From Dictyostelium discoideum (taxonomy: Eukaryota): DNA of 64,000 bases. The stretch is from NCBI GenBank assembly GCA_000004695.1, contig CM000152.2, forward strand, positions 4,960,001 to 5,024,000. Direction: 5' to 3'. The notes under the pieces were generated by a model, which was not told the origin of the DNA, did not search any database, and was given only the letters and a program-made list of their open reading frames with translations. Shown piece by piece: positions 5,873 to 14,761 of the stretch (its first letter is position 1; the number at the start of each line of letters is the position of its first letter). A program made the translations under genes and the position numbers.

Positions 5873-7936
5873 CTATGCAGAATCATTGATTGATAAAAGT
5901 GATTTTGCTGCTTCTGCAGCTTCTTCTTCTTTTTCCTTTTTTAATTTTTGAATTGCTTTTCTTTTTCTTCTACAACACTTTCCAATAGCTGAAATGGTGA
6001 ACATAGTAACGAAAACCAATACAATGGAGAGAACACCACTTAAATATGATATGATAATTTCAAGTAAGTTGGCGTTAGTATTCCAAAATGATAAAACATT
6101 AATTTTAGCTTGACAAGAATCAGAGTAAGAAGTGAATTGATAATCACCATAGAATCTTGATATTCCATAGTCACATTGGACCAATTGATAAGAGTTTACA
6201 CTGTAAGGTGCATATTGGAATTGATTATTATTTGCTGATACATCTGAAGATTGAGAGTAAACAATTGATGAACCATTGGAACTGATACGATTAGAGAAAA
6301 GGTAAAGCTCAGAATTTACTGGATTGAAAATAGCAATATTACTTGAGAAATAATTTTTAACATCAGATTTTACGGATAAAACGATAGTGCTATTTTCAAA
6401 GTAAGCAAATGATTCTGTTAAAGTGATAAGATGATATGAAATTTCATAGTTTTTCTCTGAAATTATATTGAATTGATTGGCAGTTACAATACAATTAACA
6501 GCTTTGATAAATGGACCACTTATGGAACCGGAAATACTAACTTTGTTAAAAGAGACACGAGCATTAACCAAATAAAAGAGAGAGTTTGTTCCATTTGACA
6601 CAAATGATAAAGAAACAATAGAAACATTATCCATGGTTAAACTACCTCCGTAAAGTTGTACAAGTGGAGCACTATTAAATATATAATTTGTGTTAAAGAT
6701 TGAATTTGTGATTTTTAAATCAATGGTAAAATCAAAATTGGCATTTAAAACAACTGGATATTGATTATTCATTTGATAATTAAATTGACAATTGTTAAAG
6801 GCGAAAGAAATGTTAATGTTGTCATATGGATAAGAGTTTACACCAAATACTTGGTCTACAACTTCCATATAGAGATCTTGATAATAATTGTTATTATCAT
6901 TTTCACTATTATATGAAGATTCTGATGAATATGATTCTGGTGAATATGATTCTGATGAATATGATTCTGATGAATATGATTCTGATGAATATGATCCTGA
7001 TGATTCTGATCCTGATGATTCTGATGAATATGATCCTGATGATTCTGATGAATATGATCCTGATGATTCTGAATTGAATTCAGATGAATATGATTCTGAA
7101 TTTGATTCTGAATTTGATTCAGATGAAGAGTAAGATTCTGAACCATATGGAAGTTGATTTTTTTTTTGAGCAAGTTGATCATAAGAGTTATAGTTGTTGG
7201 AAACTGAAAAATATGAAAAATCGCTATTTGCACATGAAAATATTACATTTTCTGTTTTTACATTTAAAAATAGATTTTGGTAGGAATTAATATTTGATTG
7301 TAAAAGTAAACCATTCCAAGTGTATGATAAATCACAAGTAACAGTAAGATCTCTAAAAACGATATTTGTTGGAATAATATCATAATAATTTGAATGGTCT
7401 ACAGTGAATTGTGCTGTACCTAATGATGATGATGCTAAAAGTTGAACCGATTCTCCTGGGTTGGCTGCTCCAATTGTAATATTTAAACCATATAAATTGG
7501 TTGGTGTTAAAGAATGATGTGTTCCACGACCCAATAAAATTTCAATTGAAAATTGCTCATAAGAATATGATTTGATTTGATTAATTACATATTCAATTGA
7601 TTTACTTTTGTTTTTTTTTTTTTTTTTTGATAAAAAAAATAAAAAAAATAAATAAATAAAAAATTAGTATAAAAAATAATTTTGGTAAAATAAATAAATA
7701 AAAATAAATAAAAAATAAAAAATAAAAATAAAAATAAATAAAAAAAAAAATAAAAAAAAAAATAAAAATAAAAAATAAAAAAATAAAAAAAAAAAATTAA
7801 CTTACCATGGTTCCGTTGATGCACCACAATTTGGTTGATTATAACCATTAAAATCAACATATTTTTGAAATGTGATTTGGCCAAGTGATATATTTACTAT
7901 TGAAAGTAATACTACTAAAAGATTAAATATTTTCAT
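5873..7936 (-). CDS. Type I membrane glycoprotein, paralogue B. Exon 1 is about 7936..7806 (signal peptide MKIFNLLVVLLSIVNISLG), exon 2 is about 7604..5873. Contains an internal Ser/Glu/Tyr repeat insert. C-terminal TM plus a Lys/Glu-rich tail.
   Basis: Signal-peptide exon with donor GTAAGT. The intron is 100% A/T low-complexity sequence. The acceptor gives the in-frame junction ...EP-C-KSIEYVINQIKSYSYEQFSIEILLGRG... The architecture matches paralogue A. A repeat block at 6880-7135 encodes (SESY/SESSGSY)n. Confidence 0.6.
6880..7135 (-). repeat. Coding minisatellite of about 14 copies of an 18-bp unit (gattctgatgaatatgat and variants) inside paralogue B. It encodes a Ser-Glu-Ser-Tyr-rich low-complexity linker.
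   Basis: Direct tandem repetition is visible in the sequence. It produces three overlapping spurious ORFs in the ORF track (6826..7077, 6856..7233, 6888..7133). Confidence 0.8.
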
Positions 7937-8464: not shown

Positions 8465-10967
8465 TTAAACCTTTTGATATCCATCATGTAAAGATTCAGT
8501 TAAATTAATATCAATTTTAGCACCTTTGATTTGATCACAGTAAGGAGTGTCAGAAAAATAGATTTGATTTATATTCTTTGGTTCCAATTCTTTTTTAATT
8601 CTTTCAGCCAAACCTGGAATACAAGAGAAACCACCAGTGATGACCAATTTTGAGAGATCATCTAAATTATTTTTAAAAGCTGGACGATTTCCCATTTGAT
8701 TGACGAAATTGGTGAGTGTAACGATAATATTTTCAGAGGCTTTATTTTTTTCAGAGAGTTGTGGATTAAAGTAGATTTCTGGAATTTTCGTAATGAATTG
8801 TTTGGAGGTTGGAGTATTTCTTTGTTCATTTTCAAAATCTAGACTAACTCTGACCATTTGATACCATGTAGGTTTTAATGAAAGACCACCTTTAGTAGTA
8901 GAATAGGAGGAATCTTGATAAGAGTAACTTTTAGTATACAAATCTTTATGACATTCAGAATTTTCACCGGCCATTGCAGCTATGCTATTAGCTTCATCAA
9001 TGATATCTTGACCAATCATAGATAAATTGATTGCATCAATTTGTTGACCATCTTGAAAAGCGGCTAAAACAGTGGTTTGACTACCAAACATTAAAACCAA
9101 ACCACTCTTTAATCCATGGGATTGTAATGCTAATAAACCACCATTTTTATAGAGAACCAATTCATTTGGTAGGTATCTTCTAATCTTTGAAAGATAATTA
9201 CCACCATCAGAACCAGCATAATTCAAAGGATTTACAATTAAAACGATTGGGGCATTTATTCTTATTCTTTTGAGTACTCTTTGAACCGAATATTTAATCA
9301 ATTCTTTCAATGGTTCATTCTCGAGGAATCTACCATTTCTAACACCAAAATAAAGGTCAGAGGTGGTTGTATCAGGACCAACTACCCATTTGTATCTATC
9401 CATTGACGACATAACATAGTGAGGTTGATATTCTTGACGTTTACCAACTCTTTGAACAAAAGAAAAAGCATAATTTATAGGTTCTGAGGAACTACAAAGT
9501 TTAACTCTCTCTGAGCCTATATCTAGGATCACGATTTGATTCTTTTTATAAAAGGTGTGAATATTTTGATAGGTTAACATCCATCTCTTGACATCCATTT
9601 TGGTTGGTTTTGATTTACTAGATTTAACAATTGATTCGTGGATTGAATTAACTTTGAAATTCAATACGTAATTCTTTTCAAAATTGAATGCCTCCATTGA
9701 GAAATCACGAATATAAATTCTTCTCCAAAGTGAATCCTTTGCCACGATGGTTGCAAAGTACTTACTGGTGACCCTTAATCTACCCAAATCAATTGGTTTC
9801 AATAGCACTAAAATATCGAATAGTTGCACCTCTGGTATGGTTGATAGTGTCACCAATGGTTTCTTTCTCAATGGTGATGTCACTGAAATATTCATATTCT
9901 TTATCTTTTGAGTGATTGCATCAATTGATGGATAACCCGTCAATAACATTTGAGCCTTTACATATAACGAAATTGCAGACTCAAGATCTTTCTCATCCTT
10001 TTCCTTTGAATCGGCTTTAAAGAATGTTGTCTTTGCCAATTCCATCTCTGCCTTCTCTTGAGCTGAAATCTCTTCATCCAAATTCTTATCTATACGAAGG
10101 AACATCATATCGACACGAACAATATATTTGACACCCTCTAAAACTTCTCCACCATCATGGAGAGTATCATGATTGAAAATGATTGCACTACCACTCTCTG
10201 GAACTACTGTGTCCTCCAATACATGTTTATCCAATAACAATGGGTTCTCAGAGGTAAAGAAATTGGTATTACCACCTTTAAATCCATCGTTTAAATAAAT
10301 TTGAATGGTATAAATTGAACGTCTATCTGGGTTGTCTGCAAATACTGCATCATAATGTGCCTTGAATCTACTACCTGGTAAATATTTGCTAAATGTAAAA
10401 CAATTATCAATACCAATTGGAATCCAAACTCCCTTTTGATCGAAACCATAAGGTCTAACACCTTCCAAATCACTCTCTCTAAAAATTGCTTCTAATCTTT
10501 CCCATAAAATATCTGATAATTTATCACTCTTTCCTAAATATCTTAAATTATTACGATATCCAGTTGGAAATTCTTTTTCAATTGAAACATAACCTTTTCT
10601 TTCACTTTCTTCAATAAAATGTCTTTATTTATTTTATTTTTTTTAAAAAATATATATATACAAATAAAATAAAATAAAATAAAATAAAAAATAAAAAATT
10701 AATTGATTTTTTTTCTTTTTTAAAAAAAATTTTATAAAAAATAAAAATAAAAATAAAGAAATAAATTAGAATCACTTACAAACATTCTTCTTTTGTTAAA
10801 ACATTTGTAACTTTAAAACCATTTGAGGTTGATAATTTTAAATCTGTTCTTTTTAATAATTCAGGTTTAAAATTTTCATTAGTAATGTTTTCATTAAAGC
10901 TTAATAAATCACTACCTGTTATAACCCTATTTTCTGGACATGTTGTTGTTGCACCTTCTTCTGCCAT
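8465..10967 (-). CDS. Multidomain protein: N-terminal 2OG-Fe(II) oxygenase (prolyl-4-hydroxylase-like) domain, central F-box, C-terminal actin-related (Arp-like) domain. Exon 1 is about 10967..10780, exon 2 is about 10622..8465.
   Basis: Exon 1 reads MAEEGATTTCPENRVITGSDLLSFNENITNENFKPELLKRTDLKLSTSNGFKVTNVLTKEEC then GTAAGT. Exon 2 continues in phase (L)HFIEESERKGYVSIEKEFPTGYRNN...GVRPYGFDQKGVWIPIGIDNCFTFSKYLPGSRFKAHYDAVF...IIFNHDTLHDGGEV, which gives an HxD...H iron triad. The F-box-like segment is LFDILVLLKPIDLGRLRVTSKYFATIVAKDSLWRRIY. The actin fold signatures are IVILDIGSERVKLC, LIVNPLNYAGSDGGN, GLVLMFGSQTTVLAAFQDG and LVITGGFSCIPGLAERIKKEL. Confidence 0.55.
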
Positions 10968-11938: not shown

Positions 11939-13927
11939 TTATTTTACTTTTGTTGCCATTGGTACTATATCAATTGGTAAATTAAATCTAAAACCTTTTA
12001 AATTTATAAGTTTAACAGTTGGTGGTATTGAACCTTTAGTGAAAATTTGACAAATATCATAGATTGATATTTCTTGAACAGATTCAGGTATTATACCTTT
12101 TGTTATTGTATGAGAGAAACCATCGGTAAACATTAAATATTTAATAGTATTTGGTATTGAACCAACGGTTAGAGGATGACGTATATCACCCAAATACAAA
12201 GTATCAACCGAGGAAGGTATGATATCAGTATTGATATGATGAGTGAACCCATTTGCAAATATTAATTTCCTAACGACACTTTCATTGATTGAACCTTTTT
12301 GTAAGGGTTGAATGATATCGAAAAAGTATAATCTTTCCAAAGCAACAGGGAAATTGAAACCATTGTTAAATACATCGGGAGTGATAGTGAAATTGAAACC
12401 ATTATTAAACACCAACTCTTTTATTGTTGAGGGTATGGACCTACGAGTGAGTGGTTTCTTTATTGAACCTATATAAAGTGTTTGTACGGAACGTGGTATT
12501 TTACTAGCTTTGATAATATGTGAAAATCCATTATCAAAGTATAACTCTTGAATGGTATTTGGTATTGATTCTTTAGTCAATGGTTGTACTATATCGTTGA
12601 TGTATAATGATTGAACCGTTGGTGGTATAACATCACTACAAATTGGATGTTGATAACCTTGATCGAAAAACAACTCTTTTACACCTCTACCCACTGACCC
12701 CCTAATTAATGGTTCCTTTACATTATGTAACATCAATCTACTAATCGATGGTGGCATAATATCATTTGTAATTAAAAAACTATATCCATGTGATAAACTT
12801 AACATTGTCACCGTTGGAGGTATTGATTCCTCTGTCAATGGTTCAACAATATCACAAACATACATCTTTACAACTGATAATGGTATTATCTCTTTTTTAA
12901 TCTTTTGATTAAATCCACTACAAAATATAATTTCTTTTAATTTATTATTCTTAAATTCATTATTTGTGTTATTATTATTTTTATTATTATTATTATTATT
13001 ATTGTTGTTGTTATTATTGTTATTGGTATTAATTGATGATTTAATTAATAAAGATTGATTTGTTAAAGGTTGTTCTAATTTACCTAAAAATAATTTAACA
13101 ACAGTTGGTGGTATCATTGTTTCACCGATTATTTGATGAGAGAAACCATTGAAAATATACAAATTTAATAAATTACCATTATGTGGTAATGATAATTCAT
13201 CCAATGGCTCAACTATATTACCAATTGAAATGGATGTAATTGTTGATGGAATTGTATCGGCTCTAATAGTATGATTAAAATCATCATAAAATATAATCTC
13301 TTTAATTGTTGAAGGTATTGAATCTGATGTTAATGGTTTTTCAATTGAACCAATAAATAATTTTTCAACTGTACATGGTATAAATCCTTTACTAATTTCA
13401 ATATTAAATCCATCATATAAATATAAATTCTTTACACTTGATGATATTTTAATTAAATTATTATTATCTTCTTCCTCCTCTTCTTCTTTTTCTTTTTCTT
13501 TTTCAATATTTTCAATATTTTCAATATTATTATTATTATTATTATTATTATTCTTTTTATTTTTTTTATTTTTTGATAATTTTGTAATTGCTAAATTTAT
13601 AATACCATCTGGAATTGGTTCGCCGTGATTTAAATAAAATTCTTTATCTTTACAACATTCTAAAACTATTTTTTTATCAATCATTAAATGACTATTATTA
13701 TTACTTTTGAATGGTTGAGAATCAACAATGAAATTGGTTTTAATTAGTTCAAATGCTGTATCCAAAATATCTTGATTAATTATTAAATTACTTTCTTTAA
13801 AATGTTCATATCTTTTTAATTTCCTTTCAACTAATCTATTGGTTTTATCACTATCCTTTAATAATGTTATATATTTATTTTGTTGATCTTTTTGTTTATT
13901 AATTATTTCAACTGATGTTTGTTGAAT

Positions 13928-13986
<59 letters not shown>

Positions 13987-14761
13987 GCTGTTGTTCTGAA
14001 TTATTACTATTATTATTTATAGCACCAGATGAAGATGATAATGTAGTAGAGGGAGTAGATGTTGTTGTTGTTGTTGTTGTTGTTGCTGTTGCTGTTGTTG
14101 TTGTTAATGGTTTTAAAATATTATCTAAATCATATAAATTTATATTGTCATTATGTTTATTTATTAAATTTGTAATTAATTGATTATCTGTATCAATTTC
14201 AGATTTAATTTGTAGAAAGGTTTCTTCATTTTCTGATAGTTTAGTTTCTAAAGTTCTCTTTATATTGAGTTCTAAAATTGATAAAATGTTATGTAGTTGT
14301 TTGAATTTTGATGTTAATGTTGTTAGATTGACTTTATGTCTATCTTGAATTTGTTGAAAACAATCCTCCACTGCGTTCATTATCGCTTTATCACTCTCTC
14401 TATATCCTACCAATGATGGAAATTGTTCTTTAAATTTGTCCAATATCTTTTTAGATTTCTCTAGATTCAATTCACTGAATTTATGTCCATTATGCGTTGA
14501 TATTATACATTTAACACAAACTGGACTAATACATGAATCACATATATACACTATATCATTATCTCTATGATATGAACATTTTGAATCTTCAATCTCTTCT
14601 ATATAATTATCTTCTCCACCACTATCAACTCCCTCGCCACCATTTTCTTCATCTTTAAAATAATTATTAAATGTATTATTATTATTACTAATATTATTGT
14701 TATTATAACAATTATTATTATTATTATTATATATTGAGTTATTTATTCTTGAAGGAACCAT
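11939..14761 (-). CDS. B-box zinc finger, coiled-coil and FNIP-repeat protein (940 aa).
   Basis: Single ORF. The B-box-like Cys/His cluster is CSYHRDNDIVYICDSCISPVCVKCIISTHNGHKFSEL. It is followed by a coiled-coil region with poly-Q and poly-T/N tracts. After that come about 20 FNIP repeats (…FNNGFN…L.FG..FNQPL…IP.S(V/I)..L.FG). FNIP repeats are a Dictyostelium-specific family. Confidence 0.7.

Follow-up and report, generated by a model that had tools for sequence, protein, structure and literature searches.

FbxE of Dictyostelium discoideum: a prolyl-hydroxylase-like oxygenase, an F-box and an orphan actin-related module in one Skp1-associated protein

What might a protein do that carries an oxygen-consuming enzyme, a ubiquitin-ligase adaptor motif and an actin fold on one chain? 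The question is raised by fbxE (DDB_G0281783), a Dictyostelium discoideum gene on the minus strand of a 64,000-nucleotide (nt) stretch of DNA (assembly GCA_000004695.1, contig CM000152.2, positions 4,960,001 to 5,024,000), which is called the window here and whose own numbering is used throughout. Dictyostelium is the reference organism for O2 sensing via Skp1, a subunit of SCF (Skp1/cullin/F-box) ubiquitin ligases. The reading favored here, to which we give a probability of roughly 0.55, is that FbxE is a Skp1-docked enzyme-adaptor. It would dock on Skp1, with or without Cul1/Rbx1, and its actin-related (Arp) module would recruit a target, which may belong to the cytoskeleton or bind actin. 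The oxygenase, dependent on O2 and 2-oxoglutarate (2OG), would then hydroxylate a prolyl or other side chain of the target or of a neighboring protein, and the supply of O2 and metabolites would thereby be coupled to ubiquitylation or complex assembly.

The gene is laid out as follows, with amino acid (aa) numbers referring to the spliced product:

8465..10967, minus strand: complete coding sequence of fbxE / DDB_G0281783, split into two exons (781 codons and a stop)
10780..10967, minus strand: exon 1, ATG at 10967, aa 1-62 plus 2 nt, encoding a disordered-looking N-terminal tail and the first oxygenase strands and helix
10623..10779, minus strand: intron of 157 nt, GTAAGT donor at 10779, AG end
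8465..10622, minus strand: exon 2, aa 63/64-781, TAA stop at 8467..8465, one open frame of 719 codons

A sequence-only reading of the window had located a two-exon gene at these positions, with a stop-free second exon and with oxygenase, F-box and actin domains in that order in a product of 730 aa. The location, exons and domain order were borne out, the gene matching a database protein exactly, and the length was corrected, as the spliced translation is 781 aa. Use of the first in-frame acceptor yields the database protein of DDB_G0281783, all residues matching XP_640639.1 / EAL66653.1 / UniRef100_Q54TF2 (D. discoideum AX4), entries titled "hypothetical protein DDB_G0281783" or "F-box domain-containing protein". 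The exons have a GC content of 30-36%, against 12-17% in the intron and flanks, as expected for Dictyostelium, and the gene is single-copy in the window by tblastn. The exon 2 frame stays free of stops from midway through the oxygenase, across the F-box, to the end of the Arp. A 667-aa protein from the Logan assemblies (P0005) was considered as an isoform and rejected, being the exon-2 open reading frame (ORF) taken from an internal start by intron-unaware ORF calling.

Pfam analysis of the spliced translation, the check that the sequence-only reading had proposed, found 2OG-FeII_Oxy_3, F-box-like and Actin, all above the curated cut-offs, and family profiles and structure prediction agree. 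An AlphaFold2 model built from 14 homologues, with a mean predicted local distance difference test score (pLDDT) of 77, places a beta-rich N-terminal domain (strands 128-241) before a pair of long helices (250-290); the F-box region (327-381) is helical, and residues 382-407 form a disordered linker to an alpha/beta domain (427-768). Residues 1-22 score below 50.

The enzyme module and its surroundings, in which prolyl 4-hydroxylase is abbreviated P4H, comprise the following:

10076..10832, minus strand: P4H-like 2OG/Fe(II) oxygenase module, aa 46-245, straddling the intron
10118..10396, minus strand: Pfam 2OG-FeII_Oxy_3 match, aa 139-231 (36.8 bits, cut-off 27, E 8e-9)
10382..10384, minus strand: Y143, invariant in 36 relatives
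10349..10357, minus strand: H152-x-D154, predicted first two Fe(II) ligands, aligned to the HxD of Bacillus anthracis P4H
10127..10159, minus strand: H218 (predicted distal Fe ligand, 10157..10159) to K228 (predicted ligand of the 2OG C5-carboxylate, 10127..10129), by alignment of profile hidden Markov models (HMMs) to B. anthracis P4H
9893..10075, minus strand: helical hairpin C-terminal to the oxygenase, aa 246-306, from the model and conservation

The module is thus divided between exon 1 and the start of exon 2, as had been read from the sequence, and the H-x-D...H triad proposed there corresponds to H152-x-D154...H218, to which K228 can be added. A profile of the N-terminal 300 residues of the family matched solved structures of B. 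anthracis P4H (E 2e-12) and of the PBCV-1, P4H-TM and Chlamydomonas enzymes (about 1e-6), and the predicted fold is the double-stranded beta-helix (DSBH) of solved prolyl hydroxylases. H152, D154, H218 and K228, together with Y143, are invariant across 36 relatives with a mean column identity of 16%, and the four ligands are also invariant in an alignment of 14 relatives, K228 lying at H218 + 10. Because these active-site residues are invariant while the flanking sequence has diverged, the conservation is typical of an active enzyme, and FbxE is inferred to be catalytically competent, most likely as an Fe/2OG protein hydroxylase with proline as the likeliest target residue. Features particular to the family include an insert with an invariant R-P-Y-G-F-x3-G-x-W signature, an FNHD motif immediately N-terminal to the distal histidine, and the hairpin, whose conserved motif (FFKADSxEKD..DLExAIxxYVKAQMLL) is detectable in many distant members. 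Its helices (250-271 and 276-290) are modeled with pLDDT of about 90, and the oxygenase and hairpin fold together with a predicted template-modelling score (pTM) of 0.85.

The collagen-type P4Hs (PBCV-1 vCPH, Chlamydomonas P4H-1, B. anthracis P4H, human P4H-TM) belong to the secretory pathway or to membranes, or come from viruses or bacteria, and they have neither an F-box nor an Arp. FbxE differs from them in its insert, in its C-terminal hairpin, in meeting cytosolic Skp1 and in having no signal sequence. Its N terminus (MAEEGATTTCPENR / MAEEGATTTCPENRVITGSD) is hydrophilic and predicted to be disordered, with no hydrophobic signal sequence by inspection, and because of this FbxE is taken to be a cytoplasmic protein with a collagen-type P4H fold; co-purification with cytosolic Skp1 likewise speaks against a secretory signal peptide or membrane anchor. 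PhyA, the Skp1 prolyl 4-hydroxylase (PDB 6t8m), resembles FbxE in occurring in the same organism, in belonging to the broad prolyl-hydroxylase structural family and in having a functional connection with Skp1. When the FbxE oxygenase was compared for closeness to the PHD/PhyA enzymes, it proved nearer to the collagen-type P4Hs than to PhyA; TgPHYb, a PHD-type enzyme, was rejected as a relative, and Pfam returned no JmjC match in FbxE, the fold of which is P4H-type. As a separate observation, the tail (window 10935..10967, minus strand, aa 1-22) carries a conserved P-E-N-R-(V/I)-x-T-G motif, and at least 90% of its 14 closest relatives share P11. A conserved proline in a flexible tail beside the prolyl-hydroxylase-like domain might serve it as an auto-substrate or pseudo-substrate, but this is pure speculation.

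The next feature is the adaptor motif:

9707..9853, minus strand: F-box, aa 320-368 (LSTIPEVQLFDILVLLKPIDLGRLRVTSKYFATIVAKDSLWRRIY), identified by Pfam, with W362 invariant

The Pfam match (F-box-like, PF12937) covers residues 323-368 with 37.3 bits against a cut-off of 24.3 (E 2e-9). The sequence (LSTIPEVQLFDILVLLKPIDLGRLRVTSKYFATIVAKDSLW) is canonical, containing the (L/I)P...L..IL...L...DL...V(S/C)K.F......LW pattern; W362 is unchanged across the 36 relatives, from Naegleria to Dictyostelium, and the model predicts three helices at 327-356. Association with Skp1 is taken from published proteomics, matched to this gene by its F-box sequence: in the available parts of the Skp1 interactome study of Boland et al. 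2022, on which all statements citing that paper here draw, Fig. S3 contains a row named fbxE whose F-box peptide is identical to that encoded here (PMC9485057). The protein is classed there as "avsum", meaning that it was found in co-immunoprecipitates (co-IPs) obtained with both monoclonal antibody 9E10 (anti-myc) and polyclonal antibody UOK77 (anti-Skp1), from vegetative and slug cells, and the key marks it as a UniProt-annotated F-box protein (PMC9485057). Just 14% of Skp1 interactors were captured by both reagents (PMC9485057), which places FbxE among the most robust Skp1 partners. The row is further marked "PhyA enhanced: veg", so that association of FbxE with Skp1 is reported to be greater when Skp1 can be modified (hydroxylation, glycosylation) by PhyA (PMC9485057). 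The Skp1-binding test that the sequence-only reading had suggested is in effect supplied by these co-IPs. As far as the available part of the paper goes, the oxygenase and actin folds of the protein appear not to be discussed (PMC9485057).

The C-terminal half comprises two further features:

9539..9586, minus strand: conserved helix preceding the Arp, aa 409-424, with W410 nearly invariant in a "DWY" motif
8468..9538, minus strand: orphan Arp module, aa 425-781

Pfam Actin matches FbxE at 35.6 bits (cut-off 27, E 5e-9), and a family profile of the F-box and Arp aligns to actin residues 4-354 with E 1.5e-46. In a single-sequence search of the PDB, FbxE gave a weak match to the Arp5 C terminus alone, and profiles were required to recover the actin fold. 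Foldseek superimposed the modeled domain on actin over about 385 columns, with a template-modelling (TM) score of about 0.71 (actin-normalised) and 17-19% identity. All four actin subdomains are occupied (0.63-0.96), in agreement with the complete actin/Arp fold claimed from the sequence; the D. discoideum protein lacks the last approximately 20 residues of actin, which make up the helix at the C terminus of subdomain 1. Alignment of the Arp modules to Dictyostelium actin (sequence identical to PDB 3chw_A) showed that the first phosphate loop retains D11, G13 and K18, the second retains G156 and the adenine loop retains G301-G302, while G15->E, Q137->G, D154->M, D157->S and H161->V are changed in D. 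discoideum and variable among relatives. Nucleotide binding is possible. Because Q137, D154, D157, H161 and the C-terminal helix are lost, ATP hydrolysis and polymerization are unlikely, and the module is probably a non-hydrolysing, non-polymerising actin scaffold that serves protein binding. Compared with the established classes Arp1-Arp11, it showed no clear best match to any one class. A family-invariant histidine, H464, was also observed in a P-H-Y motif (window 9404..9424, minus strand, aa 463-469, PHYVMSS), which aligns to the R39-H40 region of actin at the base of the D-loop. By topology and analogy, the Arp appears to occupy the receptor position, C-terminal to the F-box as in SCF substrate receptors.

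The three-part architecture is widespread. The search for orthologues in other dictyostelids, likewise proposed in the sequence-only reading, recovered full-length proteins from every major dictyostelid lineage at 38-42% identity (first homology search), and the fusion extends far beyond Dictyostelium. When 1.84 billion cluster representatives were searched exhaustively by HMM, 1,075 proteins matched at E <= 1e-30; many are 700-850 aa long, with near-complete coverage of the profile. Among 163 sequences scanned with module HMMs, oxygenase, F-box and Arp were found together in 40; Pfam gave weak actin matches in several more that the module Arp HMM had missed, and this dictyostelid-trained HMM is accordingly distrusted for distant members. 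Named three-part members include, among amoebae, D. purpureum, Physarum polycephalum (two proteins), Dracoamoeba, Arcella and Soliformovum (two proteins), and, among other organisms, the chytrids Nowakowskiella sp. and Rhizophlyctis rosea as well as Naegleria lovaniensis. Pfam detected the oxygenase and Actin in all of the named members tested and the F-box in all but the Dracoamoeba protein, some of the F-box and Actin matches being below the curated cut-off. The same module order occurs in >12 species, and in a taxonomic census of 20 look-ups the family fell in Amoebozoa, Fungi and Discoba. In the Naegleria protein, a single HMM alignment stretch spans profile positions 10-728. Transcriptomes of Physarum, Arcella, Soliformovum and Dracoamoeba contain single ORFs with this layout, and because these sequences come from de novo transcriptomes, the fusion is present on single mRNAs in several species.

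Constraint is distributed unequally along the chain, the oxygenase being the most constrained module (identity 62-69% within dictyostelids, 35-45% beyond) and the Arp the least (28-32% within, 14-18% beyond). The spread of the architecture reflects either great age or transfer between lineages. Further searches with the F-box plus Arp profile (A3) and with a 36-sequence profile (A4) returned nothing beyond the first search, the candidates being seemingly tied to the first sequence and plants remaining unreached. Several observations concern individual members. The D. purpureum model P0022 (2127 aa), in which the FbxE match is limited to residues 3-765, looks over-merged, as does the H. album model P0015 (882 aa), which has an Arf domain (PF00025) in place of the end of the Arp. 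The P4H-like module also occurs with other partners, namely a phosphomevalonate kinase domain (PF04275) in P0021, a FYVE finger C-terminal to the Arp in P0075 and an N-terminal rhodanese domain in P0059. Finally, some close relatives have two copies, P0006/P0008 in D. cf. discoideum (ACTFIZ_002478/002477) and P0009/P0010 in D. firmibasis; the D. cf. discoideum pair has consecutive locus tags on one contig, and the AX4 window has one copy.

Partial precedents exist for the combination. In plant ARP8/SUSA2 (At5g56180), too, one protein carries an F-box and, after it, a divergent actin fold. This protein binds ASK1, a homologue of Skp1; its actin domain is thought to bind substrate, and its predicted nucleotide-site residues are dispensable (PMC7562919). 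The reading of the FbxE Arp given above, a scaffold for protein binding, agrees with what experiment indicated for SUSA2. Proteins of this type have been reported as plant-restricted (PMC7562919). FbxE has the layout that defines the family, an F-box leading directly into an actin fold, together with Skp1 association, but ARP8/SUSA2 lacks the oxygenase, and its actin domain is approximately 30% identical to actin, compared with 17-19% in FbxE. On the enzymatic side, JcdI/Fbxo13 of Dictyostelium (and JcdH) and Toxoplasma FBXO13 resemble FbxE in joining an F-box to a 2OG/Fe(II) dioxygenase in one polypeptide, according to the available portions of both reports (PMC9485057, PMC11570480). JcdI belongs to the same Skp1 interactome, is PhyA-enhanced in vegetative cells, is conserved across protists, and is an active O2-dependent dioxygenase that requires Skp1 for solubility (PMC9485057). 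In JcdI, however, a JmjC-type cupin lies C-terminal to the F-box and there is no actin fold, whereas FbxE has a P4H-type DSBH N-terminal to the F-box and an Arp in addition.

The human proteins KDM2A/KDM2B (FBXL11/FBXL10) have the order oxygenase, F-box, C-terminal receptor domain. This order matches that of FbxE, with its oxygenase N-terminal to the F-box and its putative receptor C-terminal. Unlike FbxE, KDM2A/B are JmjC histone demethylases that act on chromatin and contain CXXC/PHD and leucine-rich repeat (LRR) domains, with neither a P4H fold nor an actin fold. In the literature searched, neither an F-box protein bearing a P4H-class oxygenase nor a fusion of oxygenase, F-box and actin fold was found described, and a text search for DDB_G0281783, or for FbxE with Dictyostelium, found no paper. 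The claim that no characterised protein has this architecture thus stands as far as the literature was searched, alongside these two-part precedents. FbxE is not categorically new, because the gene is annotated and named and its domains have already been tagged by automatic pipelines.

Several points weigh against the enzyme-adaptor proposal. The full-length model has a pTM of 0.57, leaving the arrangement of the domains uncertain; the argument for the Arp as receptor is wholly one of position and analogy; the "SR/other" (substrate receptor/other) column is empty for fbxE in the available Fig. S3 (PMC9485057); and the developmental effect of JcdI needs catalysis and not the F-box (PMC9485057). 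Because the JcdI effect is F-box-independent, tethering or control of turnover in place of substrate ubiquitylation is a live alternative and the chief rival reading. FbxE would then be mainly a hydroxylase, with the F-box as a Skp1 tether that keeps it soluble, localises it or governs its own turnover, with the Arp as the enzyme's substrate-recognition or localisation module, and with no ubiquitylation of third parties. That no other module approaches the oxygenase in conservation, that JcdI depends on Skp1 for solubility, and that some F-box proteins may bear the motif merely to control their own turnover (PMC9485057) are all in keeping with this alternative. We nevertheless consider it tentative and rather unlikely, as the Arp lies exactly at the substrate-receptor position, W362 does not vary from Naegleria to Dictyostelium, and few Skp1 partners are recovered as reproducibly as FbxE (PMC9485057).

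Other explanations fare less well. A docked P4H module might modify Skp1 itself or another SCF subunit, redundantly with PhyA or downstream of it, since the F-box would put the enzyme beside the C-terminal region of Skp1 that holds Pro143; the PhyA sensitivity of the association and the ability of hyperoxia to override loss of PhyA, which implies further O2 sensors, agree with such a role (PMC9485057). It is improbable all the same, because phyA- cells cannot glycosylate Skp1 and the FbxE fold is not PHD-like, and these facts also tell against the tie to Skp1 prolyl hydroxylation that the sequence-only reading had implied. Inactive DSBH domains occur in other families, and the oxygenase fold of FbxE might similarly have been kept for binding, leaving a conventional F-box adaptor with two interaction modules. 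This, too, we judge to have a very small chance, given that the Fe-binding histidine pair and aspartate, the 2OG-binding lysine and the tyrosine are invariant in 36 sequences from three supergroups with flanks at 35-45% identity. Read-through of two or three adjacent genes into one artefactual model, for which over-merging at the far ends of the D. purpureum and H. album models offers a parallel, is excluded for practical purposes by the continuous 719-codon exon, by retention of the layout in >12 species, in genomes and in transcriptome-derived single ORFs of distant taxa, and by the single HMM stretch in Naegleria; the sequence-only reading had likewise argued against merged genes. An ambitious extension of the enzyme-adaptor proposal, which we advance as doubtful, would make the family an ancient O2/2OG-gated SCF subunit predating the Amorphea/Discoba split, in which the P4H would write hydroxyproline on an Arp-held cytoskeletal or actin-binding target and so decide its ubiquitylation. 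Such a protein would be a one-polypeptide counterpart of PHD-then-VHL and an "other O2 sensor", and ARP8/SUSA2 would be a descendant that has lost the oxygenase.

Further ORFs were noticed on either side of fbxE. At 5873..7534 (minus strand) lies a 553-aa ORF, rich in serine repeats of the SESxSSE type, in which CCRRKRK comes after a C-terminal hydrophobic stretch. Upstream of it, a short ORF at 7802..7936 (minus strand; MKIFNLLVVLLSIVNISLGQ...) resembles a signal-peptide exon joined to it over an AT-rich intron, and the product is probably a secreted or membrane repeat protein. On the other side, a 940-aa ORF at 11939..14761 (minus strand) has numerous FNIP-type repeats together with a poly-Q tract and a Cys/His motif resembling a B-box (CSYHRDNDIVYICDSCISPVCVKCIISTHNGHKF). 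LRR/FNIP proteins recur as a class among the Skp1 interactors (PMC9485057), and the adjacency of this ORF to fbxE may be coincidental.

O2 sensors beyond PhyA have been inferred in Dictyostelium, since hyperoxia rescues phyA- cells (PMC9485057). With FbxE, a second class of dioxygenase that uses O2 would sit directly on Skp1, and the protein is a candidate for connecting protein degradation with oxygen sensing. The available Fig. S3 gives no domain for it besides the F-box (PMC9485057), and for that reason it may have gone unnoticed. Two published generalizations are overturned by the family: F-box proteins with an actin fold are not confined to plants, and JcdI is not the sole enzyme-bearing F-box protein conserved across protist supergroups. 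Because enzyme, adaptor motif and putative receptor lie on one chain in a genetically tractable organism, the hypothesis is directly testable, and this testability, along with the breadth of its conservation and its PhyA-sensitive place in the Skp1 interactome, is what distinguishes FbxE.

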